Assembly: GCA_934096555.1 (NCBI GenBank)
Contig: CAKOMD010000002.1
Span: 67,128 to 131,127, forward strand
From: an uncultured Bacilli bacterium
GTDB lineage: Bacteria > Bacillota_I > Bacilli_A > RF39 > UBA660
Direction of reading: 5' to 3'
DNA length: 64,000 bases
Shown: in pieces, positions 2,420-56,787 of the stretch
Position numbering within the stretch: the stretch's first letter is position 1
Layout of the letters: every line of letters begins with the position of its first letter
Translations under genes and position numbers: made by a program
Notes under the pieces: model-generated
The model's database searches: none
Told to the model about the DNA's origin: nothing
Seen by the model: only the letters and a program-made list of their open reading frames with translations

Positions 2420-3550
2420 TTAATTTTTGAATCTTAAGTTTTCATTTGATATATTAAATAACATTCCAATTAATATCATGTATGATAGTAGTGAAGAACC
2501 ACCATAAGAAATAAATGGAAGAGTAATACCCATTATTGGAAGCAGTCCAATAGTCATACTTATATTATGTATCTGCTGGAAGAGTAAAACTGATATTATT
2601 CCTCCAGTAAGTAATTTATCGTTGTTATTATAAGATTTACTACCTAGTTTAATAATACTAATATCAAAGTATACAATAAGTAATAAAAGACCAAGTACCC
2701 CAACAAAACCAAAGTTTGAAGCAAATACTGCAAATATAAAGTCAGTTTGCATCTCAGGGAAATATATTGGTGTATGATTAAATCCATGCCCTAATAATCC
2801 CCCAGAACCTATTGCTGTAAGCCCATTAGTAAGTTGTAAGCCACTAGAATTAGACCAATTAAGAATTCTATCCATTCGGTAAAAGAAGCTAGTACCAAAT
2901 ATCTTAATAAATAAATCTTGTTTTAAAAAATATAATCCTAAAAACATACCACCAAGTACAGCAATAGTGCCAATAGTAATAATAAACCATCTACCTCTAA
3001 AACCACCTACAAAAAGCATTACAATGGTAATAATAAAATAAATAAGTACAGCACCAGTATCTGGTTCAATAAAAGTTAATATTGAAGGAATACCAACTAC
3101 AATAAGTACTTTAATAAGAAACCTAAATTCTTCACTAACATCATTACTTCTTCTTTCTTCATTAAAATCATTTATCATTCTTGATAAGGTAATCATTAAA
3201 AATACTTTCATAAATTCAGAAGGCTGAAAACTACCAATATAAGGAATAATAAACCAACATCTAGCATTATTAATAGGCTTACCTAAGAATAATACCAGTA
3301 TCAGGAGAATAACTCCTATTATATAAAATATATAAGCATTATTATAAAGAAATTTATTACCAAATAACATCATAATATAAGCAATAGCAAATCCCAGTAA
3401 ATACCAAAGACATTGCTTAATAAACAAATTTTGATAATCACTAGCGAGTAAATCTCTCGTACAATATATAGTAATAATACTAATAATAGCAAATAATATT
3501 ATTGGTATTAAAATACAATTTTCTACTTTAAATCTTGATTCTTTTTTCAT
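2420..3550 (-). CDS. SEDS-family peptidoglycan glycosyltransferase (FtsW/RodA/SpoVE)
   Basis: About 10 TM segments and the C-terminal motif GITLPFISYGGSSLL typical of FtsW/RodA. Confidence 0.85.
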   Translation of the reverse strand: MKKESRFKVENCILIPIILFAIISIITIYCTRDLLASDYQNLFIKQCLWYLLGFAIAYIMMLFGNKFLYNNAYIFYIIGVILLILVLFLGKPINNARCWFIIPYIGSFQPSEFMKVFLMITLSRMINDFNEERRSNDVSEEFRFLIKVLIVVGIPSILTFIEPDTGAVLIYFIITIVMLFVGGFRGRWFIITIGTIAVLGGMFLGLYFLKQDLFIKIFGTSFFYRMDRILNWSNSSGLQLTNGLTAIGSGGLLGHGFNHTPIYFPEMQTDFIFAVFASNFGFVGVLGLLLLIVYFDISIIKLGSKSYNNNDKLLTGGIISVLLFQQIHNISMTIGLLPIMGITLPFISYGGSSLLSYMILIGMLFNISNENLRFKN

Positions 3551-3965: not shown

Positions 3966-3984
3966 GTTAGTATCCTAAATATAG

Positions 3985-4065
3985 CTTATATATAATAGAT
4001 ATGTAGATATATTATTTATAGACCTTAGGCTATAAATAACACTATGAGACCATAGACTCATAGTG
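3985..4065. repeat. Composite intergenic repeat: 29-nt box plus two loop-conserved hairpins
   Basis: Box cttatatataatagatatgtagatatatt (3985-4013). Hairpin atttatag[ACCTTAGG]ctataaat (4014-4037). Hairpin cactatgag[ACCATAGA]ctcatagtg (4040-4065). Confidence 0.85.
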
Positions 4066-20906: not shown

Positions 20907-20911
20907 TAAGA

Positions 20912-21095
20912 TACCTAGAGGATACGACATCTTTAGTATAAAACCGACTAAAGATATTAAACGGGGAGCTAATATAGTTTATGTGTTGAATACCTATCAT
21001 TGATAGGGATCCTAATTAGACTATTGTGCTGACCCACCTGTGACTTACGCCGCGGGTTTTATCTTACAGAGTCGGTCCATCTGGGTCTTTTTTTT
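20912..21095 (+). ncRNA. Structured ~185-nt ncRNA, candidate 6S RNA
   Basis: No ORF and locally GC-rich. The 5' gatacctagagga can pair with the 3' tccatctgggtc. Also accgact/agtcggt and cctatc/gatagg helices; ends in T8. Lies between aspS and the tcdA (yrvM) homolog, where I recall B. subtilis bsrA being located. Confidence 0.4.
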
Positions 21096-26444: not shown

Positions 26445-26497
26445 ATAATGAAGACCTTAGGCTTCATTATGCCTCTTAAGACTACAGGCTTAAGAGG
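26445..26497. repeat. Loop-conserved hairpin pair (reverse orientation)
   Basis: ataatgaag[ACCTTAGG]cttcattat and cctcttaag[ACTACAGG]cttaagagg. Confidence 0.85.
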
Positions 26498-26519
26498 TAA
26501 TAAGAAAGTAAGTGATATC

Positions 26520-27434
26520 TTGATAAATATAGATAAATTAAATGCTAAGAATAAAAAACTATTATCAGACTATATAATAGAACTAAAAACAATCAAGCAA
26601 AGAGATAAAGATACAACAGTTAATTCATATAGTGAAGATATATATAAATATTTAGAATATATGGAAAGTAAAAATATATCTAGTGCTTTAGATATAAGCT
26701 ATAATAATTTATTAGACTATTTAAAGTACTTAGACGATAATAAATATGAAGTATCTTCAGTAGCTAGAAAAATAGTATCTATAAAAGCCTTTCATAAGTA
26801 TTTAAGTGAAAATTATAAAGTAATAGATATAAGTACCAAGATAAATACCCCTAAATTCTATAGAAAACTACCTAATATCTTAACTATTGAAGAAGTAGAT
26901 AATCTTTTAGATATAAAGTTAGATACTCCTTTTGATTACCGAAATAAGGCTATGTTAGAACTAATGTATTCCTCAGGACTTAGAGTAAGTGAATTAATTA
27001 ATCTAGAACTTAGTGATATAGATTTAAATAATAACTATGTAAGATGTTTTGGTAAAGGAAGTAAAGAAAGAATTGTACCAGTAGGAGAATACTCTTCTAA
27101 ATATTTAAGTATTTATATTAATGAATACCGAGATAGTATGAAGAAAGGTTATTATACTGAGAAGATATTTTTAAATAATCATGGCAGAGAAATGACTAGA
27201 CAAGGTTTCTTTAAAATTATTAAGAAAATTGCTAAAGATAAAGATATTAATAAGAATATAACACCGCATATGTTAAGACATTCTTTTGCTACACATCTAC
27301 TAAATAATGGAGCAGATCTAAGAACAATCCAAGAGATGTTAGGACATTCTAGTATCTCTACTACACAAATATATACTAATGTAACAAATGACATATTAAA
27401 AGAAAACTACGATTTATATAAAAGAAGGGACTGA
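26520..27434 (+). CDS. xerD: XerD/XerC-type tyrosine recombinase (start uncertain)
   Basis: RNKAMLELMYSSGLRVSE, HMLRHSFATHLLNNGADLRTIQEMLGHSSISTTQIYT. The first ~24 codons of the ATG-started ORF (26448) are made of the hairpin repeats, so TTG 26520 or nearby is proposed as the start. Confidence 0.75.
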   Translation: MINIDKLNAKNKKLLSDYIIELKTIKQRDKDTTVNSYSEDIYKYLEYMESKNISSALDISYNNLLDYLKYLDDNKYEVSSVARKIVSIKAFHKYLSENYKVIDISTKINTPKFYRKLPNILTIEEVDNLLDIKLDTPFDYRNKAMLELMYSSGLRVSELINLELSDIDLNNNYVRCFGKGSKERIVPVGEYSSKYLSIYINEYRDSMKKGYYTEKIFLNNHGREMTRQGFFKIIKKIAKDKDINKNITPHMLRHSFATHLLNNGADLRTIQEMLGHSSISTTQIYTNVTNDILKENYDLYKRRD

Positions 27435-28816: not shown

Positions 28817-28853
28817 AATAAAAGAATAGAGTAGAGTACCCTATTCTTTTATT
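28817..28853. terminator. Bidirectional intrinsic terminator
   Basis: Perfect 13-bp stem aataaaagaatag / ctattcttttatt between convergent genes. Confidence 0.65.
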
Positions 28854-28854
28854 A

Positions 28855-29028
28855 TTAAAATAAATCTTTAGAACTATTGTTATTCTTTTTACATGACTTA
28901 CAATCATCTTTATGACATTCACAAGTAGTATCGTCATGTGTTTCATCATCTTTATGACAATTACAGTCAAAAGTGTTAGACTTATCTAATTTATTATCAG
29001 TTTTAGATTTCTTATCTTTTTTACTCAT
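28855..29028 (-). CDS. Small Lys/Asp-rich protein with two CxCHKDD repeats
   Basis: 57 aa from ATG 29028, with GGAGG 8 nt upstream. Sequence ..CNCHKDDETHDDTTCECHKDDCKSCKK.. Confidence 0.5.
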   Translation of the reverse strand: MSKKDKKSKTDNKLDKSNTFDCNCHKDDETHDDTTCECHKDDCKSCKKNNNSSKDLF

Positions 29029-29126
29029 TTTAATTACCTCCATTAATATTATTAACAATAGGTAATATATTTATTCTTTAATTACTTAATATGAAAAAAT
29101 TGGCATATTGTTCTTCTATTTATAGA

Positions 29127-29154
29127 AGTTAACATAATATTGATTATAGGAACA
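29127..29154. other. dif-like Xer recombination site (best chromosomal-type copy)
   Basis: AGTTAACATAA-TATTGA-TTATAGGAACA. The reverse complement of the left arm, TTATGTTAACT, matches the E. coli XerD arm TTATGTTAAAT at 10 of 11 positions. Overall 22 of 28 to the B. subtilis dif as I recall it. Located at the coding-strand switch. Confidence 0.6.
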
Positions 29155-29177
29155 TCAATATTTTTTAAAATAGGCCA

Positions 29178-30083
29178 TTATTTGCCCGTCTGAATTAATT
29201 CTATAAAATCAATATCATTTCCAGTATATATATCTTTATATTGGGAAGAATAATCAATAGAACAATTACTAATTAAATTATTAAAATATTTTAAATCATT
29301 TTCATTTGATAAATCTAAATATTCTTCACAAGGCTTATTTAAGTTTTGGGAGTTAAAGTATCTATGCTTACCAAATAATTTATTATCTATATCTTTAGTC
29401 ATATATTTACAGATATATGAATAAATCTTTTTATAATCTCCTTTTATAAAATCAACTCTAGCAAAACCTTTTGACCAATACTTAACATCAAATAGGGTAG
29501 TTAAATCTTTAGTTTTTTCGGTTCTTTCTTTTTGAGGAATAATAATATTAGTATCTCCCCTACCTAGATTTGATAATATATGATAATGAACAGCACCTCT
29601 TTTTTGAAACTCTGGAACTGCTATATATTTAAAATCTTTTTTTAATCTACGAATGTTTGATGCCCAATTATGAAAAATCTTATTAGCATAAACAATATCA
29701 GTAATATTTTCTTTAAAAGTTAAAGTAATAAAACTTTCCCAACTATCTCTATTTGATTTAGCAATTCTTTGACAATTCATATTGCTACGAATTGCATTAG
29801 AAAGCAATATTGATTTAACTTCCTCTACTCTATCAGGTTTATATAAATTATCAGTATCAATATCTTTAATACTCATTTTTGGTAATTCTTTATCTCTAAT
29901 GTTATCTTTTGACCTAGAAACTGGGAACTTGTAAACTTGTAAAGTGTCTCCACAATGAATAATTTTTACATCATAAATTATTCTACTTTCTACATCTTTA
30001 TACGCAGATATGAGACTACTATCAAGTAAAGGAGCAGCCGGGTGTTTCACACCCTCGCTCGTAGTCTCATTTATATGTATCAT
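29178..30083 (-). CDS. HUH rolling-circle replication initiator
   Basis: Motif 1 FITLTF, motif 2 GAVHYHIL (HUH), motif 3 YSYICKYMTKD (catalytic Tyr). Confidence 0.8.
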   Translation of the reverse strand: MIHINETTSEGVKHPAAPLLDSSLISAYKDVESRIIYDVKIIHCGDTLQVYKFPVSRSKDNIRDKELPKMSIKDIDTDNLYKPDRVEEVKSILLSNAIRSNMNCQRIAKSNRDSWESFITLTFKENITDIVYANKIFHNWASNIRRLKKDFKYIAVPEFQKRGAVHYHILSNLGRGDTNIIIPQKERTEKTKDLTTLFDVKYWSKGFARVDFIKGDYKKIYSYICKYMTKDIDNKLFGKHRYFNSQNLNKPCEEYLDLSNENDLKYFNNLISNCSIDYSSQYKDIYTGNDIDFIELIQTGK

Positions 30084-30104
30084 ATTATCACACTCCTATT
30101 AAAT

Positions 30105-30235
30105 TGAAGGCTGTCGCCCTCGTGGGGAACCCCTGCCCCACTTCACCTACTTTAGTATAGGGGCAAGCCCCTATTACCCCATTTTATAAAATTATCGCTA
30201 TAGCTTACTCGTCCGCTTCGCTCCCACTGACGATA
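30105..30235 (-). other. GC-rich intergenic region of the prophage (candidate origin/packaging region)
   Basis: Hairpin ataggggc-aa-gcccctat (30157-30174), ggggaacccc (30124-30133), palindrome gctatagc. Lies between the rep and ATPase genes. Strongly GC-enriched versus flanks. Confidence 0.4.
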
Positions 30236-30243
30236 TAAGTTAT

Positions 30244-30891
30244 TTATGTTTTTATTTGTTCAAAAGTATCATAAGAGTTAGCAACAGATAAATTACATTT
30301 ACTTATAGTGGTTTCAGTCAGAGGAGCAATATACTCATTATCTTCTTGAGACCATTTCATTTGTTCAGCATCATACATACTTTTTATTAATACACCTAAA
30401 CCAAGAAGGTTTAACATTTTGCAATCTATTTGATATCTACAGTATCTACGAAGAGTTATATTAATCTCAAGCCACTCTTGAGCAGTAGTAATAAATATAA
30501 TTCTTCTCTTTCTCATTTGTGATAAGAAATCTAAAACATCAGTATTAATCTTGCTAGATTTAGTTAATGCAGTAAATATTTCGTCATAAAATATAATACA
30601 ATCGTGTTCATTTCTTAATTTAAGCAAATTATCAAAACCAGTAAAATAAGTGTAGTTAACGCCTTTAATAGTAGAAACATTAGCATAAATAGGCATATGA
30701 GAATTATTAAGAATAAACTCTACTGCAGAATAAGTTTTACCAGAACCTTGTTTACCGCAATAACAATAAACCCCAAACTTACCTCTTTTAGGAGCAAAAC
30801 CTTTTTTAAAAAAAGTTTTCCATTTAATTTTAGTATGTCTAAATCTAATAAGTAAAATAACAATTAAAATAATTAAAAATAAATAAATCAT
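30244..30891 (-). CDS. Zot/pI-like assembly ATPase
   Basis: N-terminal TM, Walker A GKQGSGKT, Walker B CIIFYDE. 215 aa. Confidence 0.65.
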   Translation of the reverse strand: MIYLFLIILIVILLIRFRHTKIKWKTFFKKGFAPKRGKFGVYCYCGKQGSGKTYSAVEFILNNSHMPIYANVSTIKGVNYTYFTGFDNLLKLRNEHDCIIFYDEIFTALTKSSKINTDVLDFLSQMRKRRIIFITTAQEWLEINITLRRYCRYQIDCKMLNLLGLGVLIKSMYDAEQMKWSQEDNEYIAPLTETTISKCNLSVANSYDTFEQIKT

Positions 30892-30933
30892 AATATTCCT
30901 TTCTTAAGCCGAGCGGCTTATATATAAAGCCGC

Positions 30934-31233
30934 TTACGGCTTTAACTTGTTATACCATCTTAATGCTAACTTAATCATATAAAAGAGCATTGGAGCAGTT
31001 AATTTAAATGTAAAATATAATACAATTAAAGAAAGTGTTTCATTTGATAAACCTAATGTACTTATACCCCAACCTATTGATTGACCTACTAGATTAAAGA
31101 AATTACCCACTGCAGTTAAAGCATTTGATAAATCTGGCAGAGCAGTTTCTATTAATGCATCAATTGGGGCAAGAAGTAAACTAACTAGACCAATAATAAG
31201 TTTCATTATACCCATTAAGATTTTATTAATCAT
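30934..31233 (-). CDS. Phage membrane protein
   Basis: 99 aa with 3 hydrophobic segments. Start overlaps the stop of the upstream gene. Confidence 0.5.
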   Translation of the reverse strand: MINKILMGIMKLIIGLVSLLLAPIDALIETALPDLSNALTAVGNFFNLVGQSIGWGISTLGLSNETLSLIVLYFTFKLTAPMLFYMIKLALRWYNKLKP

Positions 31234-32633
31234 AAATCTAACACCTCTATTCTATCTTCGTCTGGGTTTTTAAACTCTTTAACTAAAGCAAATATACGAA
31301 CACAAACCCAGTAAGCAACTATACCAAAAGTAATGGTCTGATAAATAGTAAGAAAAGAACCGAAATTCTCTTGATATATAGAACTCATACAAGGTAGTGT
31401 TAATTTATTATTCTTAGATAAAAAGGGTATATCTAGAGCTAAAGGACTACAAGTACTAGATGTTATGCTACCAATTAAAGTTAAAGGAGCGGTAATTATA
31501 GAAGTTAAGCCAAATGTTTCAGTAGTAAAACCACTAAAAAATTCGTTTGCTTTATTAGTACTATCGGTAGTATTGTCATCATTTAAAGTATCATTTACCT
31601 CGCCTATTTTTTCATTAGTTTTATCAATCTTACTAGTACATTTTTTATTTAAAATTATTTTACCAGAGTATCCTTCAATTTTAGAATTTAAACGAATGTA
31701 TTTTACATTAGAATCTGTTATAGTAAAAGTTTCTTGTCTTAATGAAGAAATCTTTTTATAATTTGAATCATAGGTTTCAACAAATAAAGAAGTAAAACCA
31801 GATTGAGTATAAGAATAACCATACTTTACAGGTATATATGAAGTAATTAACCAATTACTATTTTCTTCTGCATTTCCATCTCCTATTAAATCATAACCAT
31901 TTATTACAGAAAATGAAATATTTTGTTCTGGCTCACAATCATTAAAATTATCATTTATAGAATCTTTAATATTGTTTTCGCTATCTTTAACAGTTGTAGA
32001 AATATTGTTAAAGTTATTATTAATGATAGTATTAATTTTATCACTAGTAAGAGTATCTCCTAAACCTAAAGAAGTAATATTATAACCATAAAGATAATAA
32101 ACATCAGTACATCTTGAAGCCATGGTAAAAGGTAATGTTATATAATTACCACTAGCACCAGCAACAAAAACAAAAGATAATCCTTTATTACCAGATACAG
32201 AATAATCACTAAACTTAATTACTGAATTGCCCCCATTTTGATAAGCATTTTTTGAAGAATTTAAAGAGCCACCAATACCAATACGATTAACACTAGACAA
32301 ATTAGTATAACCACAACCAGTAGCTCCAACAGAAACAGTTAAAGAATAAGCATAACCAGACATTAAAGGCTCATTAAGGTAAAAACCTACTGCTCCACCT
32401 GAAGTACCAGGAATTGTAATAAAAGAATCAGACATAAAAAACATATCATTACCACCATTATTAATTAAATCAGTAGACTTAGCAGTTAAAGAACCATTGT
32501 TATTATCATAAAACTGAGCAGATGACGGAACTATAAGACCATCAGTTGAAAGAGCATTAACAAATAAAGTATCGACCAAAAAGAAAGATACAAAACATAA
32601 TAAAATTGATAATATTTTTTCTTTTTTACTCAT
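31230..32633 (-). CDS. Secreted, C-terminally anchored phage protein (pIII-like adsorption protein candidate)
   Basis: Signal peptide, 400-aa Asn/Ser/Gly-rich ectodomain, C-terminal TM. This is the topology of inovirus minor coat proteins. Confidence 0.5.
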   Translation of the reverse strand: MSKKEKILSILLCFVSFFLVDTLFVNALSTDGLIVPSSAQFYDNNNGSLTAKSTDLINNGGNDMFFMSDSFITIPGTSGGAVGFYLNEPLMSGYAYSLTVSVGATGCGYTNLSSVNRIGIGGSLNSSKNAYQNGGNSVIKFSDYSVSGNKGLSFVFVAGASGNYITLPFTMASRCTDVYYLYGYNITSLGLGDTLTSDKINTIINNNFNNISTTVKDSENNIKDSINDNFNDCEPEQNISFSVINGYDLIGDGNAEENSNWLITSYIPVKYGYSYTQSGFTSLFVETYDSNYKKISSLRQETFTITDSNVKYIRLNSKIEGYSGKIILNKKCTSKIDKTNEKIGEVNDTLNDDNTTDSTNKANEFFSGFTTETFGLTSIITAPLTLIGSITSSTCSPLALDIPFLSKNNKLTLPCMSSIYQENFGSFLTIYQTITFGIVAYWVCVRIFALVKEFKNPDEDRIEVLDL

Positions 32634-32968
32634 TAGTTAAACCTCCTAAATAACCTCATAAATATCTTGAAAGGTATATAAAAACTAAATATAACCATAA
32701 TTACAAAAATAATTAAAATACTATCTATATCATTACGATAAAAAACATTATCAGTAACAACATCTGTTGATAAACAAACTGGTAAATAAGTTTGATAATT
32801 ACCAAATGACTGGGTATTATCTTTATAAATGTAATTACTATTTATATAATAATCTCTATACTCAACTTCAGTATTTCTTTGAGGTACTTCTTTATATGCT
32901 CTTATAATATCAGAAGACTGAACTACAAAGCATTTATAATTTTGAATATCAGGAACATAAATATGCAT
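32633..32968 (-). CDS. Phage membrane protein
   Basis: Start at ATG 32968 with AGGAGG upstream. C-terminal TM. Stop/start overlap with the next gene. Confidence 0.5.
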   Translation of the reverse strand: MHIYVPDIQNYKCFVVQSSDIIRAYKEVPQRNTEVEYRDYYINSNYIYKDNTQSFGNYQTYLPVCLSTDVVTDNVFYRNDIDSILIIFVIMVIFSFYIPFKIFMRLFRRFN

Positions 32969-32972
32969 AATA

Positions 32973-33086
32973 TTACCTCCTACCAAATAATAGACTACCG
33001 ATAAAGTCAAATAATATATAAATGGCAATAACTGGTACTATTAAGTCAACCATTTCTTTCATAAAAGCTATAGCAATATCAAACAT
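32973..33086 (-). CDS. Small hydrophobic phage ORF (37 aa)
   Basis: MFDIAIAFMKEMVDLIVPVIAIYILFDFIGSLLFGRR. Overlaps the upstream ORF by ATGTTTGA. Not in the supplied ORF track because it is under 60 aa. Confidence 0.45.
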   Translation of the reverse strand: MFDIAIAFMKEMVDLIVPVIAIYILFDFIGSLLFGRR

Positions 33087-33222
33087 CTTTATCACTTCCC
33101 CAAATATCAGTATCTATATGTAATTTATTAAAAATTAATTCAAAACTAAGAGAAATCTTTTTATATAAATAAATTATTAGAATACCTAATAAACTAACCA
33201 TAAGCCCAATTAAATAAATCAT
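33079..33222 (-). CDS. Small hydrophobic phage ORF (47 aa)
   Basis: MIYLIGLMVSLLGILIIYLYKK... RBS AGGTGG 5 nt upstream. ATGA overlap with the preceding ORF. Confidence 0.5.
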   Translation of the reverse strand: MIYLIGLMVSLLGILIIYLYKKISLSFELIFNKLHIDTDIWGSDKDV

Positions 33223-33374
33223 TTATTCCACCTATCCTTTCTTTTAAATGAAAATAAAGGTCTACATTCTAAATCTATAAATAAATCTTTGTTTGTTTTA
33301 ACTTCCCATTTTACTAATAAAAAATGAATTAATGTATAAATAACTATAAATATTAACAATTGATAAACTGTCAT
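33219..33374 (-). CDS. Small hydrophobic phage ORF (51 aa)
   Basis: MTVYQLLIFIVIYTLIHFLLVKW... Strong RBS gaaaggag. Confidence 0.5.
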   Translation of the reverse strand: MTVYQLLIFIVIYTLIHFLLVKWEVKTNKDLFIDLECRPLFSFKRKDRWNK

Positions 33375-33430
33375 AATATTATCTCCTTTCTAAAAAAATA
33401 AGGAGTAGGCTTTTCCACCTACCCCCATGA

Positions 33431-33637
33431 CTAAAATCTAACTTTACCTTTACTAGCACCCTTGATTAACTTTCTTAGGAAATATAAACCAAGAGAAGCG
33501 ATAGTAAGAGTTATAACCCAAGGCATTAAATCAGAAACAGTACCGAATAAAGTACTTGAAGTAATACCGGTATTTAATTTACTAACTACTTCACTCATTG
33601 AACCAGTAGGAGCAACAGTATCTAAAGCATACAACAT
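33431..33637 (-). CDS. Major coat protein-like (pVIII-like)
   Basis: 68 aa with a central hydrophobic helix WVITLTIASLGLYFL and a basic C-terminus RKLIKGASKGKVRF. RBS aggaggaaaagg. Confidence 0.6.
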   Translation of the reverse strand: MLYALDTVAPTGSMSEVVSKLNTGITSSTLFGTVSDLMPWVITLTIASLGLYFLRKLIKGASKGKVRF

Positions 33638-33688
33638 ACCCCTTTTCCTCCTTTCTCCTTAATTTCTATCTAAATTGATTATTATCAA

Positions 33689-33868
33689 CTAAAAAGGCAT
33701 TTTTGATTTTTTATCACTATCATTAGATAATTTAACTAATTCTAGTTCAGCAGGCTTTAAAAATACTTTCATTGAATATGTTGGAGTTAACTGAATAACT
33801 AAACATTGATAAGTACCTGAGCCATCTTTTTTATTTAGTGTTTCTAATGTACATTTAACTTCTTTCAT
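33689..33868 (-). CDS. Small soluble phage protein (ssDNA-binding protein candidate)
   Basis: 59-aa ORF MKEVKCTLETLNKKDGSGTYQCLVIQLTPTYSMKVFLKP.. with RBS aaggagag. Its position just upstream of the coat gene matches gene V in inoviruses. Function is inferred only from position and size. Confidence 0.4.
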   Translation of the reverse strand: MKEVKCTLETLNKKDGSGTYQCLVIQLTPTYSMKVFLKPAELELVKLSNDSDKKSKMPF

Positions 33869-33871
33869 TTT

Positions 33872-34123
33872 TTACACTCTCCTTTCTAACCATTTAATGA
33901 TTTTATTAATTAAAATCTTTTTTTTAGAATATTTAGTTTTAAAATAATCAGAAGAGCTATCGCAACTAATTAATTTACCTTTATCAGTTATAAAAAACAT
34001 ACATACAATTTTATGATTATATTGATTTTCATAACCTATCTGATACTTATTATTCCAAAAAGCAGATTTAATTTTTTTAGCATAATAACATTTTTTATGA
34101 GGATTGAAATAAATTACTACCAT
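33872..34123 (-). CDS. Hypothetical phage protein
   Basis: 83-aa ORF with no convincing RBS, so the start is uncertain. Confidence 0.35.
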   Translation of the reverse strand: MVVIYFNPHKKCYYAKKIKSAFWNNKYQIGYENQYNHKIVCMFFITDKGKLISCDSSSDYFKTKYSKKKILINKIIKWLERRV

Positions 34124-34273
34124 ATAGGAGTATATAGGGCTGTTTCTTTTTCCGTAAAGACATTTACCTAAACCATAGCACCCTATTACTAACCAAGTCT
34201 ATTTATTATTAAAATAGTAGATATAATTAATTCTAAATAAAATATTATTATGCCTTTATTTTGTTTTAATAAT

Positions 34274-34450
34274 TTAATCATAGTAACCACCATCTAAAAA
34301 GATTTCATTACCATAAATAATTTGAAACTCCAAATCTTTATCATATACTCTAATTAAATCGTCAAGAACTTTAATTAAATTAGATAATTCAATAAAGAAA
34401 TCTATATGAGTATCTTTATAGCCTTTCCAAATTAAATAATATTTTTTCAT
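34274..34450 (-). CDS. Hypothetical phage protein (58 aa), first gene of the leftward operon
   Basis: MKKYYLIWKGYKDTHIDFF.. with RBS agaaaggag. Lies downstream of the TTGACA-17-TATACT promoter. Confidence 0.45.
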   Translation of the reverse strand: MKKYYLIWKGYKDTHIDFFIELSNLIKVLDDLIRVYDKDLEFQIIYGNEIFLDGGYYD

Positions 34451-34468
34451 TTCTTATACTCCTTTCTG

Positions 34469-34544
34469 GGACATCTTTGTCCTATACAACCAAAGTATAT
34501 CATAATGGGGCAAACTTGTCAATGTAAAAATGAGACAAAGTTGC
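34469..34544. promoter_or_regulatory. Prophage immunity region: leftward promoter and three operator-like imperfect palindromes
   Basis: ggacatctttgtcc (34469-34482), gcaaacttgtc (34510-34520), gacaaagttgc (34534-34544). Minus-strand promoter TTGACA (34522-34517), 17-nt spacer, TATACT (34499-34494). The middle site overlaps its -35 and spacer. Confidence 0.45.
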
Positions 34545-34569
34545 TACAATTTTATTAGAGGTGTAAAGT

Positions 34570-34767
34570 ATGCTAAAAGAATATAGAAAAAGAGCAAAGA
34601 TATCACAAGAAAAATTAGAAGAAATAACTAATATTGACAGAAAAACAATATTTAGAATTGAAAATGATTTAAATATGCCATTACTAGATAATTTTGCAAA
34701 AATAGTAATAGCATTAAAATTAACAGACAAAGAGATAGCAGAAGAAGTTAAAAAGACAATAAAATAA
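34570..34767 (+). CDS. XRE/Cro-CI-type repressor of the prophage
   Basis: The 65-aa sequence KEYRKRAKISQEKLEEITNIDRKTIFRIEN forms an HTH. Divergent from all other phage genes. Confidence 0.7.
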   Translation: MLKEYRKRAKISQEKLEEITNIDRKTIFRIENDLNMPLLDNFAKIVIALKLTDKEIAEEVKKTIK

Positions 34768-34774
34768 AAAAACA

Positions 34775-34814
34775 CCCGTAGATGGCATTTATTTGCTTTC
34801 TACGGGACTTTTTT
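34775..34814 (+). terminator. Intrinsic terminator of the repressor gene
   Basis: cccgtaga / tctacggg stem followed by a T-run, ending 1 nt before the second dif-like site. Confidence 0.65.
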
Positions 34815-34842
34815 AGTTTACCTTATATTGATTATAGGAACT
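34815..34842. other. Second dif-like site with a degenerate XerD-type arm
   Basis: AGTTTACCTTA-TATTGA-TTATAGGAACT. Central region and right arm are identical to the site at 29127-29154; the left arm differs. Confidence 0.55.
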
Positions 34843-35151
34843 TAAATATTTTATTAAAAGATGATTAGTTGTTAAGCTAAAAATTACCAATAAAATATAC
34901 TTATTTTATATATTAATAAATTATCTCTAAATATCTATATTCTTTAATTATAAATTATATTTATATTAATATTATTCTACATATATTTATCTTTTATGTA
35001 TATAATAAAATTAACTACAATTATTTGCTTTATAGTTAATTTTAAATGTATAATAGTTAACCTAAATAATTTTAAATTCTTTAGAATCACCATTTAATTT
35101 TATTATCTATTACTTCCCTATTCTTTAGTTAAAATTAAAGTAGGGGACTTA

Positions 35152-37106: not shown

Positions 37107-37207
37107 AATATCCCCCTCTTATTGGCGAATATTATATCATAAACAAGTGTTTGTGTCAAGCACCATAAAATTTATCTAATAACTGTAGTTTATGTATATA
37201 CCCTATG

Positions 37208-37292
37208 CTTATATATAATAGATATGTAGATATATTTATTAGAGACAATACTTTGGCTCTAATAAACACTCTAGAACCTTAGATCTAGAGTG
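37208..37292. repeat. Composite intergenic repeat: 29-nt box plus two hairpins
   Basis: Box identical to 3985-4013. Hairpins tttattagag[acaatactttgg]ctctaataaa and cactctaga[ACCTTAGA]tctagagtg. Confidence 0.85.
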
Positions 37293-38434: not shown

Positions 38435-39067
38435 TTAAATAAATAGTTTTATCATTACTTTTAATAGAGATGGTACTAAATAAGCTTCACATAATGCAGA
38501 TATTAGACATAGTAGAATACATATACCAAATACTAGAACATATTTTTTGAAGAACTTACCTAGATTTACTGTTTTATCTTTGAGAAATATCATTTTAAAT
38601 AAATACTTAGAGAATAGGAGTGTATATACTCCTAGTATAAGGATTATAAGGATATTAATTAACTGACTAGGAACAGTGTATACTAGTGAAGATAGTATTC
38701 CTTTATATTTATATACTAAGATAAAGGAAGATATCGAAAAGCCTATGGTAAAACTTTTCATATATATAAAGAAGATATTAAAGATAACACCAATAATAGA
38801 CATACCAAGTATCCAAGATAATATTATGAGTATCATACCTTCAATTAAACTATTTTTAAAAGAATTAAGATTATTAATGTTGTTAGTATTGATATTAGTC
38901 ATAAAAGTACTAATTTCATTAATAACTTCTGATTTATCATTCTCATTTAATACCATTAGAAAAAGAGAGCCTGATATTATTCCGAGTACCACTATAAATA
39001 TTACAAATAAATTTACTTTCTTATTAGGTAAAATTAGAGCAAGTCCACTATTTAATTTCTTATTCAT
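38435..39067 (-). CDS. spoIIM: Stage II sporulation protein M-like membrane protein
   Basis: 210 aa, ~5 TMs. N-terminal layout resembles SpoIIM. Confidence 0.65.
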   Translation of the reverse strand: MNKKLNSGLALILPNKKVNLFVIFIVVLGIISGSLFLMVLNENDKSEVINEISTFMTNINTNNINNLNSFKNSLIEGMILIILSWILGMSIIGVIFNIFFIYMKSFTIGFSISSFILVYKYKGILSSLVYTVPSQLINILIILILGVYTLLFSKYLFKMIFLKDKTVNLGKFFKKYVLVFGICILLCLISALCEAYLVPSLLKVMIKLFI

Positions 39068-41178: not shown

Positions 41179-41207
41179 TTGACTTTTTATGTAAAATATA
41201 GTATATT
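41179..41207 (+). promoter_or_regulatory. Promoter of the type III antitoxin RNA / toxN operon
   Basis: TTGACT (41179-41184), 17-nt spacer, TATATT (41202-41207). Confidence 0.6.
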
Positions 41208-41213
41208 ATTATT

Positions 41214-41382
41214 GCATTTGAAAGAGTGCTTAATATGTAAATGTTTCTCGCTTACGGGTGGTGCGAGTAATAAATGATCCCGATTGACAATGTTTCTCGC
41301 TTACGGATGGTGCGAGTAATAAATGATTCCGAAGGAAAATGTTTGAAAACTCTGTTAATATAATGGAGTTTTCTTTTGTTTT
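41214..41382 (+). ncRNA. Type III antitoxin RNA (ToxI/CptI-like), 2.1 x 49-nt repeats plus terminator
   Basis: Repeats at 41241-41289, 41290-41338 and a partial one from 41339. Each contains the hairpin ctcgc-ttacggRtggt-gcgag. Terminator aaaactc/gagtttt plus T-run (41346-41382) directly before toxN. Confidence 0.7.
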
Positions 41383-41415
41383 GTGGTAAAATGTTGTACA
41401 TAGGGAGTTGATTAT

Positions 41416-41883
41416 ATGAAAGTAGAAACTGGATATTTATATCATATTAAAGATGAGTTTTTTGATATTGTTAATGATGATAATCTTATGGCTAATCATG
41501 AACGTGGAAAGAAAAGGCCTACATATTTTACTATTAAGGATAAAGATATATTATGGTTTATTCCTTTGAGTAGTAAAGTTGAAAAATATCAAAAAATCAT
41601 AGATAAAAAAACTGAAAAGTATGGTTTTTGCAACACTATTTTTATTAGGAGAATATTGGAAAAAGACTCTGTTATATTGTTTCAAAATGCATTTCCTACA
41701 TTAGAAAAATATATAGATCATATCCATACTTTAAATGGTGCGCCTGCTAGAGTTGCGGATAATTTAAAAGAGGAAATATTAGAAAACTTTGAAAAATTAT
41801 TAAAACTTAAAAATCACGGTCATAATGTGTTCTTTACTGATGTAGATAAAATTAAAAAACAAATGCTAGAAGAATTAAAATAA
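41416..41883 (+). CDS. toxN: ToxN/AbiQ-family endoribonuclease toxin
   Basis: YLYHIKDEFFDIV..RPTYFTIKDKDILWFIPLSSKVEKYQ parallels ToxN FYTISSKYIEYL..AFIGIVLEIQGHKYLAPLTSPKKWH as I recall it. 155 aa. Preceded by a tandem-repeat RNA and a terminator. Confidence 0.7.
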   Translation: MKVETGYLYHIKDEFFDIVNDDNLMANHERGKKRPTYFTIKDKDILWFIPLSSKVEKYQKIIDKKTEKYGFCNTIFIRRILEKDSVILFQNAFPTLEKYIDHIHTLNGAPARVADNLKEEILENFEKLLKLKNHGHNVFFTDVDKIKKQMLEELK

Positions 41884-41916
41884 AAGTTAATGATAAAAAA
41901 TCAGTTTTGTGTTATG

Positions 41917-42016
41917 TTGACTTTTTATGTAAAATATAGTATATTATTATTGCATTTGAAAGAGTGCTTAATATGTAAATGTTAATCGCTTACGGATGGT
42001 GCGAGTAATAAATGAT
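41917..42016 (+). repeat. Second copy of the promoter, leader and one antitoxin repeat, downstream of toxN
   Basis: 100-nt direct repeat of 41179-41278 with about 4 substitutions. Two of them (tttctcgc to ttaatcgc) weaken the repeat hairpin. Confidence 0.8.
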
Positions 42017-42059
42017 CTCAGTTGTAAATAAAAGAATTATAAAAAGGAATACAAGTATC

Positions 42060-43066: not shown

Positions 43067-43228
43067 ACTATCACCTCTTCATAGGCTAATATTTTACAAT
43101 AAAATAGTTGTAAAGTCAAGTAAATCAAGGTAATTTATGAATATGGTAAATATTATCTTTCATAATTTTATCTATAAGAGAGATACTAATAATGTAGTCT
43201 GTGAATATAGTTAAAGGAGATGTATTTT

Positions 43229-44224
43229 ATGTTTTTTAAAAAAATAAAAAACAATGTTATTCTGCTGATACTCTCATTATTTATTATTCCCACTTATGCC
43301 CTTGCTTATTCAGATTATGTAATAGCGGGAGGAGAAAATATTGGTATTGAACTTAATTCTAAAGGTATAATTATCGTAGGTACTTATAGTGTTAATAATA
43401 CTAATCCTGCTAAAGAGGCTGGACTACAAAATGGTGATAAGATAATTAAAATTAATTCTAAAGATGTAGATACTATTAAAGATATGATAACCACTATTGA
43501 GAATAGTAATAATAAAGATAATTTATCTATTACCTATTTAAGGGGAAGTAAAGAGAATACTACTAATATTAAATTAGTTAAATCTGAAGGTGATATCTAT
43601 AAGACAGGACTATATGTTAAAGATAGTATAACTGGTGTTGGAACACTTACCTACATTGATCCTAATACTAAGCTATTTGGGGCATTAGGACATGAAATAA
43701 TTGAAAAAAATACTGGGCAAAAACTTGAAATAAAAGATGGTAAAATATATAGTTCTACTGTAACAGGAGTTACCCGAAGTAGTATTGGTAGTCCTGGTGA
43801 AAAGAATGCTAGATATGATAGTTCTAAGGTATTTGGTAATGTATTTGAAAATACTAATAAGGGTATATTTGGTACATATACTAGTGATATTCCCAATAAG
43901 AAACTATATGCTGTAGCTAAAGATAGTGATATTAGTACTGGTAAAGCAAGTATTTTTACTGTAGTTAATAATGATAAAGTAGAAGAATTTACTATTAATA
44001 TTATTAAAATTAATAATAATGATGCTGTTACTAAGAATATATTATTTGAAGTGACTGATAAGAATCTACTTGATTTAACTGGTGGTATTGTTCAAGGAAT
44101 GAGTGGTAGTCCAATAATTCAAGGTGATTATATTATTGGAGCAGTAACTCATGTAGTAGTAGATGATCCTACTAAAGGATATGGTATATTTATTACTAAA
44201 ATGTTAGAGGAAGCAGAAAACTAA
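43229..44224 (+). CDS. spoIVB: SpoIVB peptidase (S55) with PDZ domain
   Basis: PDZ AGLQNGDKIIKINSKDV, catalytic-region GALGHEI and GMSGSPII. Confidence 0.85.
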   Translation: MFFKKIKNNVILLILSLFIIPTYALAYSDYVIAGGENIGIELNSKGIIIVGTYSVNNTNPAKEAGLQNGDKIIKINSKDVDTIKDMITTIENSNNKDNLSITYLRGSKENTTNIKLVKSEGDIYKTGLYVKDSITGVGTLTYIDPNTKLFGALGHEIIEKNTGQKLEIKDGKIYSSTVTGVTRSSIGSPGEKNARYDSSKVFGNVFENTNKGIFGTYTSDIPNKKLYAVAKDSDISTGKASIFTVVNNDKVEEFTINIIKINNNDAVTKNILFEVTDKNLLDLTGGIVQGMSGSPIIQGDYIIGAVTHVVVDDPTKGYGIFITKMLEEAEN

Positions 44225-56024: not shown

Positions 56025-56240
56025 TCCTTCTAAAAAAGAAAAAAGATAGTACCATAAAAGGACGAATTAATATCCGCGGTACCACCTTTCTTTATAACAT
56101 AAGTTATACTCTTAAATCTTTAACCTGATTAACGGTATAAAACTAAAGGGTGAATTCATACTAAATAATTAACTCTTCTTTCACCCTCTAAGAGCTCGCT
56201 AATAATTATTTTTATAGTATTACTACTTCCTCATCACTGT
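56025..56240 (-). promoter_or_regulatory. T-box riboswitch leader (Phe specifier)
   Basis: The minus strand reads ..gaaUUCAccc.. (UUC specifier followed by a purine). Conserved aaaggtggtaccgcgg (complement of 56078-56093), then terminator and T-run. Confidence 0.8.
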
Positions 56241-56244
56241 CTTA

Positions 56245-56787
56245 TTATATAGTCATTAAATCTTTTTCTTTCTCTTTTAATTTTTCATCTACAATTTTAT
56301 TATATTCATTAATTAAATCTTGTACTCTTTCATTACCTCTTTTTTCTTCATCCTCAGGTAATTCTAAGTTTTCTAATGCTTTATTAGCATCTTGTCTAAT
56401 ATTTCTAAGAGCTATTTTTGCTTCTTCTCCCAATCCTTTAACTTGTTTTACTAGTTCTTTTCTTCTATCTTCAGTAAGTGGCGGTATTACTATAAACACT
56501 ATTTCTCCATTGTTATTAGGAGTTACTCCTAAATTAGCTTCGAAGATAGCTTTTTCTATTGCTCCAAGACATGATCTATCAAATGGTTTAATAGATAATT
56601 GTCTAGCTTCAGGTATAGATATATTTGCTAAACTTTTAAGTGGTGTTGGTACTCCATAATACTCTACCATAATACCATCTAACATATTAGGATTAGCTCT
56701 ACCTGCCCTTACATTAGTAAACTTGTTTTCTAAAGATTCAATTGTTAACATCATCTTTTCTTCTGTACTATTTAATATTTCTTCCAT
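56245..56787 (-). CDS. frr: Ribosome recycling factor
   Basis: RAGRANPNMLDGIMVEYYG.PTPL..LANISIPEAR.L.I.PFD; 180 aa. Confidence 0.92.
   Translation of the reverse strand: MEEILNSTEEKMMLTIESLENKFTNVRAGRANPNMLDGIMVEYYGVPTPLKSLANISIPEARQLSIKPFDRSCLGAIEKAIFEANLGVTPNNNGEIVFIVIPPLTEDRRKELVKQVKGLGEEAKIALRNIRQDANKALENLELPEDEEKRGNERVQDLINEYNKIVDEKLKEKEKDLMTI

Follow-up and report, generated by a model that had tools for sequence, protein, structure and literature searches.

A filamentous-phage genome inserted at the dif site of an uncultured Bacilli bacterium, a probable case of Xer exploitation

Introduction

Mobile elements that encode no integrase can be inserted at the chromosomal dif site by the Xer machinery of their host (integrative mobile elements exploiting Xer, IMEX). 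Two of them, the phage TLCphi of Vibrio cholerae and the gonococcal genetic island, keep the XerC arm and the centre of the host dif and carry a divergent XerD arm, and their integration leaves one good dif and one weakened site (PMC5357621). Here we describe an element with the same properties, located at positions 29155-34842 of a 64,000-nucleotide (nt) stretch of contig CAKOMD010000002.1 from an uncultured Bacilli bacterium; the whole stretch is called the window. Judged from sequence, and with a probability that we put at about 0.87, the element is a temperate filamentous phage without a recombinase of its own that was integrated at dif by the host Xer machinery. It differs from TLCphi and the gonococcal island in that its host belongs to the Bacillota and theirs to the Proteobacteria, and in that its XerD arm is only mildly degenerate (8/11). 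A further difference is that no XafT-like activator was detected in Pfam and PHROGs scans, and the gonococcal island is, unlike the element, a 57-kb non-phage element.

Vibrio inoviruses of the VGJphi and CTXphi type share with this element a Rep, a Zot and a repressor; they integrate at dif through host XerCD, as we infer for the window phage. Tandem arrays are a further common trait (PMC5357621, PMC12715192), represented here by a relative of the phage (L050; such handles denote other sequences compared with the window). CTXphi is unlike the window phage in that its attP is a folded single-stranded DNA (ssDNA) formed from two inverted sites, and the likeness to the Vibrio inoviruses as a whole is limited to remote membership of the Rep and Zot families, with no secretin dependence or toxin cargo in the present element. 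Left-armed and right-armed attP sites are known in Vibrio, in which either arm together with the centre forms a 17-bp identity block at one dif (PMC12715192). This choice of arm is paralleled here, since the window, L020 and P0007 phages keep the XerC arm and the L012 and L014 phages, which lie in the opposite orientation, keep the XerD arm; the phylum and the dif sequence are different, however, and the place of rstR/xafT or rstR/zot as terminal genes is taken by Rep and XRE.

Filamentous phages of Gram-positive bacteria, such as Propionibacterium phage B5 and Clostridium CAK1, are small, infect single-membrane hosts and are not known to carry a secretin gene. No description of dif or Xer use was found for B5, CAK1 or the inoviruses of Roux et al. 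2019, and terms for XerC, XerD and dif sites are absent from the main text and eight supplements of the latter study. The searchable literature outside subscription journals likewise yielded no Gram-positive IMEX inovirus, which is absence of evidence only.

The closest deposited genomes are those of the bajarodino viruses and of porcine 'Inovirus sp.' (circular gut-virome sequences of 4-6 kb, GenBank PQ0061xx and MT1352xx). They share with the element the gene order repressor, small proteins, large protein, Zot, Rep, and one of them, PQ006174 (bajarodino virus 14, a circular 4.47-kb member of the Inoviridae), encodes homologues of five element proteins. These genomes differ from the window phage in being known as free circular virome sequences only, with no described integration; no paper on 'bajarodino' was found in the searchable literature.

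A precise insertion at dif

The element lies between two 28-mers, found where the first-pass annotation of this DNA had placed them, and the gene for the presumed recombinase is located nearby:

26448-27434, + strand: gene for a host XerD-like tyrosine recombinase (NCBIfam profiles), the presumed catalyst, outside the phage
29127-29154, + strand: attL, the regenerated and presumably functional dif, reading AGTTAACATAATATTGATTATAGGAACA, that is, AGTTAACATAA-TATTGA-TTATAGGAACA
34815-34842, + strand: attR, a hybrid site reading AGTTTACCTTATATTGATTATAGGAACT, that is, AGTTTACCTTA-TATTGA-TTATAGGAACT

In attL the host XerD-type arm is followed by the centre and a XerC-type arm, and in attR a phage-derived, weakened XerD-type arm is followed by the centre and the host XerC-type arm. 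The two sites are unlike at 4 of 28 positions, three of them in the left arm and the fourth being the last base.

Evidence for insertion comes from relatives in which the site is empty. Four sequences with a flanking phosphoglucomutase-like (pgm) protein 95-97% identical to that of the window (L002, L003, L004 and L006) carry at the same position a single site, AGTTAACATAATATTGATTATAGGAACT, which is the attL left arm joined to the attR right end; attL matches this dif at 27/28 positions, the last base alone being unlike. With 29155-34842 taken out, the window aligns with L003 and L006 over 663/665 nt at 95.4% identity with 2-4 gaps, and synteny is retained on both sides in the order XerD, pgm, a 67-amino-acid (aa) His/Cys-rich open reading frame (ORF), dif, a 113-aa lipoprotein-like ORF, a 261-aa HTH protein and mnmA. 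Relatives without the block thus carry one dif composed of the left half of attL and the right half of attR, as the recombination event proposed in the first-pass annotation would have it. Because the empty site joins these two halves, the crossover is placed inside the 17 nt that attL and attR share, which is what exchange at the borders of the 6-bp Xer central region would give. On this comparison, the block 29155-34842 is a precise insertion at dif.

The shared 17-mer, ATATTGATTATAGGAAC, is an exact direct repeat that occurs in the window at 29137 and 34825 and nowhere else, as had been claimed, with an expected number of extra copies of 4e-5. The repeat alone was considered and rejected as proof of insertion, since the window is AT-rich and exact repeats of 17 nt or more abound in it: about 15 families were counted, and first-order Markov simulation gave about three repeated pairs. 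A repeat statistic allowing up to three mismatches was uninformative. The real significance of the repeat therefore derives from its context, namely dif and the empty sites, and not from its length alone.

Several lines of evidence argue that the chromosomal site is dif at the replication terminus. The cumulative G-C curve reaches its maximum at 28836, 291 nt from attL, and removal of the insert leaves the peak unmoved; gene strand also switches at the site, 23 of the 26 ORFs of at least 110 aa to its left being on the + strand and almost all of those to its right on the − strand. The reverse complement of the empty-site dif matches the experimentally defined B. subtilis dif at 23/28 positions (10/11 in the XerD arm and 9/11 in the CodV/XerC arm; reference dif sequences were checked in PMC3025954). 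For attL the corresponding figure is 22/28, and this count and the 10/11 match to the E. coli XerD arm had both been given correctly before. When species-representative genomes were scanned with the pgm protein, 26 loci were recovered, all from metagenome-assembled genomes of uncultured gut Bacilli or 'Tenericutes' together with Clostridium sp. CAG:302. The pgm protein itself had no exact match on record. In 18 of the 26 loci pgm is followed, a few hundred bases downstream, by a 28-mer of the form A[GC]TTAACATAA-TATT[AG]A-TTATAGGAA[CG]T; this 28-mer is kept in these 18 related species though the flanks diverge, the order XerD-pgm-dif is conserved with it, and in three of the 18 representative genomes the dif is occupied.

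Two further observations concern the site. The single unoccupied dif of a related species (L016, 8844-8871) ends in ...GGAACA, with the same last base as attL of the window, and therefore position 28 of dif is either polymorphic or bears the footprint of a past integration and excision. In host DNA 213 nt to the right of attR, at 35055-35065, lies a XerD-arm-like 11-mer, AGTTAACCTAA (10/11), which adjoins neither a centre nor a XerC arm and may be due to chance or be the relic of an older integration.

The XerD-like gene ends 1.7 kb upstream of dif. Its product scores 327.4 bits against the TIGR02225 XerD profile, just below the equivalog cut-off of 329.6, and 315.9 bits against NF001399, a tyrosine-recombinase subfamily model with a cut-off of 279. 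The closest relatives of the host are uncultured gut Bacilli with records named 'Clostridium sp. CAG:302', 'Bacilli' and 'Tenericutes', which correspond to family CAG-302, placed by GTDB within order RF39 (PMC7676259). The window also encodes a SpoIVB peptidase homologue (43220-44224, + strand, PF05580, 5.6e-73) and a SpoIIM-family protein (38435-39067, − strand, 1.2e-14), so that sporulation-associated genes are present in a lineage with genome records that read Tenericutes or Bacilli metagenome-assembled genomes. Given these two homologues, the earlier label of 'spore-former' for the host is plausible.

Gene content of the element

The 5.69-kb element has 12 of its 13 genes on one strand, and all components of the ORF inventory drawn up in the first-pass annotation (motif strings, transmembrane segments, small hydrophobic ORFs, GC-rich region and divergent XRE gene) are present:

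29178-30083, − strand: Rep, HUH rolling-circle initiator of the gene-II-protein type, with FITLTF, HYH and YICKYMTK motifs
30084-30243, − strand: GC-rich intergenic region, candidate replication origin or packaging signal, 45.6% GC with short G+C hairpins
30244-30891, − strand: Zot/pI-like morphogenesis ATPase, 215 aa, with P-loop and an N-terminal transmembrane segment (residues 1-23)
30934-31233, − strand: 99-aa protein with two transmembrane segments, candidate minor virion or assembly protein, pVI-like by position
31230-32633, − strand: 467-aa protein with N-terminal signal-like segment and C-terminal anchor, candidate pIII-like receptor-binding protein
32633-33028, − strand: 131-aa protein with C-terminal transmembrane segment, conserved in rodent-gut inoviruses
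32973-33374, − strand: overlapping small ORFs of 40, 47 and 51 aa with one transmembrane segment each, candidate pVII/pIX-like minor coat proteins
33401-33426, − strand: intrinsic-terminator-like hairpin and T-run, directly after the 68-aa gene
33431-33637, − strand: 68-aa candidate major coat protein, hydrophobic core LMPWVITLTIASLGLYFL and basic tail RKLIKGASKGKVRF
33689-34450, − strand: early-gene block of soluble proteins of 58, 83 and 59 aa and a 34-aa ORF
34494-34522, − strand: best sigma-70-like promoter, TTGACA, 17-nt spacer and TG-extended TATACT, 11/12 consensus positions
34570-34767, + strand: XRE-family repressor, lysogeny regulator, Pfam HTH_3 6e-11 and PHROG repressor families

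Pfam and PHROGs scans covered the ten largest ORFs of the element, the rest being of 51 aa or less, and returned matches to Rep, Zot/AAA and HTH families only. Rep, which adjoins attL, matches PF23343 REP_ORF2-G2P (8e-18) and phrog_3419, 'rolling circle DNA replication initiation' (9.4e-27); its identity to the Reps of filamentous phages of Ralstonia is about 29%, and records of Spiroplasma phages were matched as well. The ATPase matches Pfam Zot (24.1 bits against a cut-off of 20.3) and phrog_197 (2.9e-7 over residues 42-164), and over more than 90% of its length it is 35-37% identical to the annotated Zot of bajarodino viruses, circular Inoviridae of 4.4-5.4 kb from rodent faeces. Both proteins thus match inovirus families. 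Integrase and transposase families were found by neither scan in these ten ORFs, in agreement with the earlier claim that the element has none, and no secretin is encoded according to the ORF list, Pfam and PHROGs.

The seven proteins of 467, 131, 99, 68, 59, 83 and 58 aa match no Pfam or PHROGs family, and homologues of several of them occur in bajarodino virus 14: the 131-aa protein is 62.6% identical to its counterpart (about 70% at the nucleotide level), the 68-aa protein 37% and the 99-aa protein 32%. Comparison with L028, a relative with a Rep 97% identical to that of the window, singles out the 467-aa protein, with hydrophobic segments at residues 5-30 and 433-452, as the most divergent product (65.6% identity, against 87-99% for its neighbours). 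Since it alone has strongly diverged from so close a relative, this protein fits a role in adsorption. Identity to L028 is 94-95% for the 40-aa and 47-aa ORFs; the 40-aa ORF is the 37-codon ORF of the earlier inventory, which was counted from an internal ATG. In Ff phages a terminator likewise stands right after the major coat gene. The early-block proteins, homologues of which occur in the L012, L014 and L020 prophages, may by their position have an ssDNA-binding or regulatory role. The promoter is the top match in 29000-35000 and faces the structural genes, divergent from the XRE gene, the terminator hairpin of which (34775-34814) abuts attR. The intergenic region at 30084-30243 stands out from the 26.6% GC of the whole element. 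Taken as a set, these genes indicate that the insert is an inovirus-like filamentous phage genome (Tubulavirales/inovirus-like).

Relatives of the phage

Public assemblies contain 1305 Rep homologues; many of them stand on contigs of 5-6 kb, many others on longer ones that reach 400 kb, and single Rep variants recur on 60-70 contigs. The group is already in databases without annotation, for example as an nr entry 'Inoviridae sp.' and one IMG/VR contig. The same prophage was found in a Nepalese gut sample (L044), where nucleotide identity is 98.7-99.8% along most of the prophage and the flanking attL and attR are identical to those of the window; the attR-identical site occurs in L045 and L046 as well. 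A search of IMG/VR with Rep and a Rep alignment gave two loci only, the first an integrated copy with the same att sites and the second a distant circle with no site matching the dif of the window host.

A sister phage, with a Rep 83-85% identical to that of the window, supplies the circular form. Two circular contigs of about 5.7 kb (L031 and L032, terminal overlaps of 23 and 30 nt) carry a dif-like attP, ATTATTTTTAA-TATTAA-TTATAGGAAGT, at the predicted place, flanked by the 3' end of Rep and that of the repressor gene. Independent samples yielded nine integrated copies (L033-L041), each of them flanked by the 261-aa gene and by pgm/XerD, with a full dif on the pgm side and an attP-like site on the other, and the matching empty attB is found in L007-L010. 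Every integrated relative examined sits at the same dif locus.

The central hexamer of the att sites co-varies between phage and host. It is TATTGA in the window and L044, TATCGA in L029 and L047, and TATTAA elsewhere; because both junctions in another sample (L029, L047) carry TATCGA, the centre of the phage tracks that of the host dif. L012 and L020 are Zot-encoding prophages at the same dif with a Rep of the RepB/pMV158 type (PF01719) and not of the G2P type; since this unrelated family occupies the same site, Rep cannot set the target. L012 (11718-16738) and L014 (11641-16957), both Zot-encoding, occupy the same dif in the opposite orientation, and their attP keeps the XerD arm and centre (ACTTAACATAA-TATTAA) with a degenerate XerC arm. 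Under both attP geometries the conserved arm lies beside the 3' end of Rep and the phage operon points to the functional dif, and it is therefore co-directional with replication.

Scaffold_313 of ERZ28616303 (L050) contains at dif, between 2630 and 15235, two prophage copies in tandem that are 100% identical over 6279 aligned nt, with attP at the internal junction. Either the tandem is a real IMEX array or circular and integrated forms were merged during assembly, and both cases are signatures of IMEX.

Two tandem XerC-arm modules were observed in sister phages (L048 2420-2479, L050 2630-2689 and 8919-8978, L031 1-60). L048 has CATTGA-TTATAGGAAGT first and TATTAA-TTATAGGAAGT 32 nt further along; in L031 the centre of the second module is TTTTGA. 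The TATTAA module is the only one used in the hosts seen, and the other nearly matches the TATTGA of the window host. In hosts whose dif has another centre, the spare module could serve as attP instead.

In PQ006174 (L001) a weak and putative dif-like 28-mer, TTTTTACATTG-TATGTA-TTATACGAACT, was noted at 3084-3111. It lies at the attP-equivalent place between the repressor and the 3' end of Rep, overlaps the last Rep codons, and has a second partial arm copy about 30 nt upstream.

Proposed mechanism of integration and its alternatives

A phage without an integrase that sits exactly in dif most likely borrows the host Xer system, and the following sequence of events is proposed. The double-stranded replicative form would carry attP of the form AGTTTACCTTA-TATTGA-TTATAGGAACA (predicted junction sequence …GGGACTTTTTTAGTTTACCTTATATTGATTATAGGAACATCAATATTTTTT…), and host Xer proteins would pair it with dif. 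The 6/6 identical centre would permit strand exchange, with the crossover falling within the shared 17 nt. Of the two products, the pgm-proximal attL would remain a working dif and the distal attR, with its weakened XerD arm, would be a poorer substrate, so that excision during dimer resolution would be disfavoured, in parallel to TLCphi and the gonococcal island. The XRE repressor would silence the leftward operon; on relief, Rep would start rolling-circle replication, and the Zot/pI ATPase together with the small membrane proteins would extrude virions; a secretin would take no part, in keeping with a host that has a single membrane.

The attB, attL and attR geometry of this scheme is seen for the window phage and all four att sites are seen for its sister. 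Pointers to Xer dependence are circumstantial, comprising the adjacent XerD-like gene, the co-variation of the centre and the independence of targeting from Rep family. The first-pass annotation had proposed recombination of attP with dif, by analogy with CTXphi-type elements that use host XerCD. Insertion at dif and the shared XerC arm and centre have held, and the CTXphi type has given way to one resembling TLCphi and the gonococcal island, in which a single duplex attP combines a conserved XerC arm and centre with a weakened XerD arm.

A number of points weigh against this reading. Xer catalysis itself is deduced from sequence, and a second Xer gene (a XerC/CodV paralogue) was not found in the 64-kb window. 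With an 8/11 XerD arm and a perfect centre in attR, both sites look competent for recombination on paper, which leaves stable maintenance unexplained. For this exact phage no circular or attP-junction sequence was found: L028 (5352 nt) is non-circular, it and L030 end inside the att core, and the two metagenome scans, which looked for the attP-specific junction and the phage-side flank respectively, gave no match. The L050 tandem could be an assembly artefact. Among the gene assignments, the Pfam Zot match does not extend beyond the Walker A stretch, the coat and adsorption proteins are proposed from size, hydrophobicity and position, and the ssDNA fold of 30084-30243 has a z-score of only -1.44, which is not significant, so that a structured origin there stays an inference.

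Among the alternatives, the one that survives best is a single-recombinase Xer system similar to XerS/difSL or XerH/difH, in which both arms would be served by one protein, the XerD-like product of the gene 1.7 kb away. Such a system is possible because the recombinase gene is tightly linked to dif, a linkage kept in 18 species; the genomes moreover appear small (one complete chromosome record is of 1.46 Mb), the protein falls just short of the XerD equivalog cut-off, and the window has no other Xer gene. The two arms are unlike at 3/11 positions, however, and resemble the B. subtilis XerD (10/11) and CodV (9/11) arms respectively, and conservation of one specific arm in each phage lineage is easier to understand with two proteins; the gene count, for its part, covers 64 kb of the genome. 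We therefore regard a lone recombinase as unlikely, if worth keeping in view.

Loss of the ability to form virions, which would make the element a satellite or a decayed or domesticated prophage remnant, is also improbable. Virion, read-level and circular-form evidence is lacking for the exact element, and its host is uncultured, which would suit a remnant. Against this, all ORFs are intact and, the 467-aa gene excepted, 87-99% identical to those of L028; the L044 copy is nearly identical along most of the sequence; diversification is confined to the presumed adsorption gene; close strains differ in whether they carry the element; and sister phages exist as circles and tandem arrays.

A third alternative retains Xer and changes the substrate, with XerC alone acting irreversibly on a folded single-stranded phage genome, as in CTXphi, rather than on the double-stranded form. 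The phage is presumably ssDNA, the analogy was drawn in the first-pass annotation, and in the reconstituted attP the XerC arm lies between the halves of an 8-nt inverted repeat, ATATTGAT / ATCAATAT. That attP has no second inverted dif-like site with which a forked hairpin could form, and is instead a complete 28-bp duplex-type site with a 6/6 identical centre, whereas CTX-type sites have no homology on the XerD side of the centre (review PMC5357621). Consequently, this route seems very improbable. A CTX-like folded attP was sought directly and rejected, as the fold shows no forked dif duplex, its hairpins being the XRE terminator and one of 8 bp. As an observation in its own right, the phage-side ATCAATAT beside the XerC arm (window 29144-29167, reconstituted attP) is an inverted repeat of the centre region ATATTGAT, which would place the XerC arm in the loop of the 8-bp hairpin if single-stranded; the repeat shows no co-variation in the strain with the TATCGA centre.

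Lastly, integration by the element itself, with the HUH Rep as strand transferase or a recombinase hidden among the small ORFs and the likeness to dif an incidental target preference, is hardly credible: HUH enzymes are able to join DNA, Rep adjoins attL and the 58-, 83-, 59- and 131-aa proteins match no family, but each junction consists of exact dif halves around a common centre, the same site is occupied with the same att logic by phages whose Rep is of an unrelated family (RepB/pMV158, PF01719), the phage hexamer tracks that of the host, and ORFs of 58-131 aa are too small for known recombinases. Integration of a duplex attP at dif by the host Xer machinery thus stays the preferred reading.

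Other features of the window

Four features away from the phage were noted. At 41179-42030, two 49-nt direct repeats, AATGTTTCTCGCTTACGGRTGGTGCGAGTAATAAATGATYCCGA, stand behind a 67-nt promoter-like block and upstream of a 155-aa ORF (41416-41883), and the block and one repeat recur just after that ORF. This layout resembles a type III toxin-antitoxin locus, in which an RNA-repeat antitoxin would be paired with an endoribonuclease; the 155-aa ORF has no Pfam match and no significant PADLOC match. Rfam matches at gathering level are a 6S RNA at 20909-21091 (+ strand, 61 bits) and a T-box leader at 56055-56246 (− strand, 95 bits). An exact 30-nt direct repeat, GCTTATATATAATAGATATGTAGATATATT, is located at 3984-4013 and 37207-37236, 33 kb apart and on either side of the terminus.

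Significance

IMEX filamentous phages have apparently not been described in the Bacillota so far. Tentatively, and with the odds somewhat against it, the phages reported here may be the first documented Xer-exploiting filamentous phages of that phylum and form a guild, in which at least four Rep/Zot combinations occupy the RF39 dif through either arm, some with dual-centre modules (TATTAA with CATTGA or TTTTGA), and in which the host recombinase possibly acts alone. The finding is of moderate interest, chiefly to specialists in Xer and IMEX biology and for gut-virome annotation. It supplies a rule for delimiting such prophages in metagenome-assembled genomes, by dif half-sites and the terminal genes Rep and XRE, and assembly breaks at the terminus of such genomes can stem from these elements. 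For the uncultured RF39 lineage it also offers a module of natural origin for site-specific integration.

What is known of IMEX biology comes from Vibrio, Neisseria, Xanthomonas and enterobacteria, where XerD is controlled by FtsK and phages escape this control or turn it to their own use. Direct activation of CodV/RipX by Bacillota translocases has not been shown (review PMC5357621), and because no such XerD switch is established there, dif phages of Bacillota raise the questions of what triggers integration and what prevents excision. Borrowing of the host Xer machinery, as proposed here, would explain the lysogeny of a common class of integrase-less gut inoviruses.

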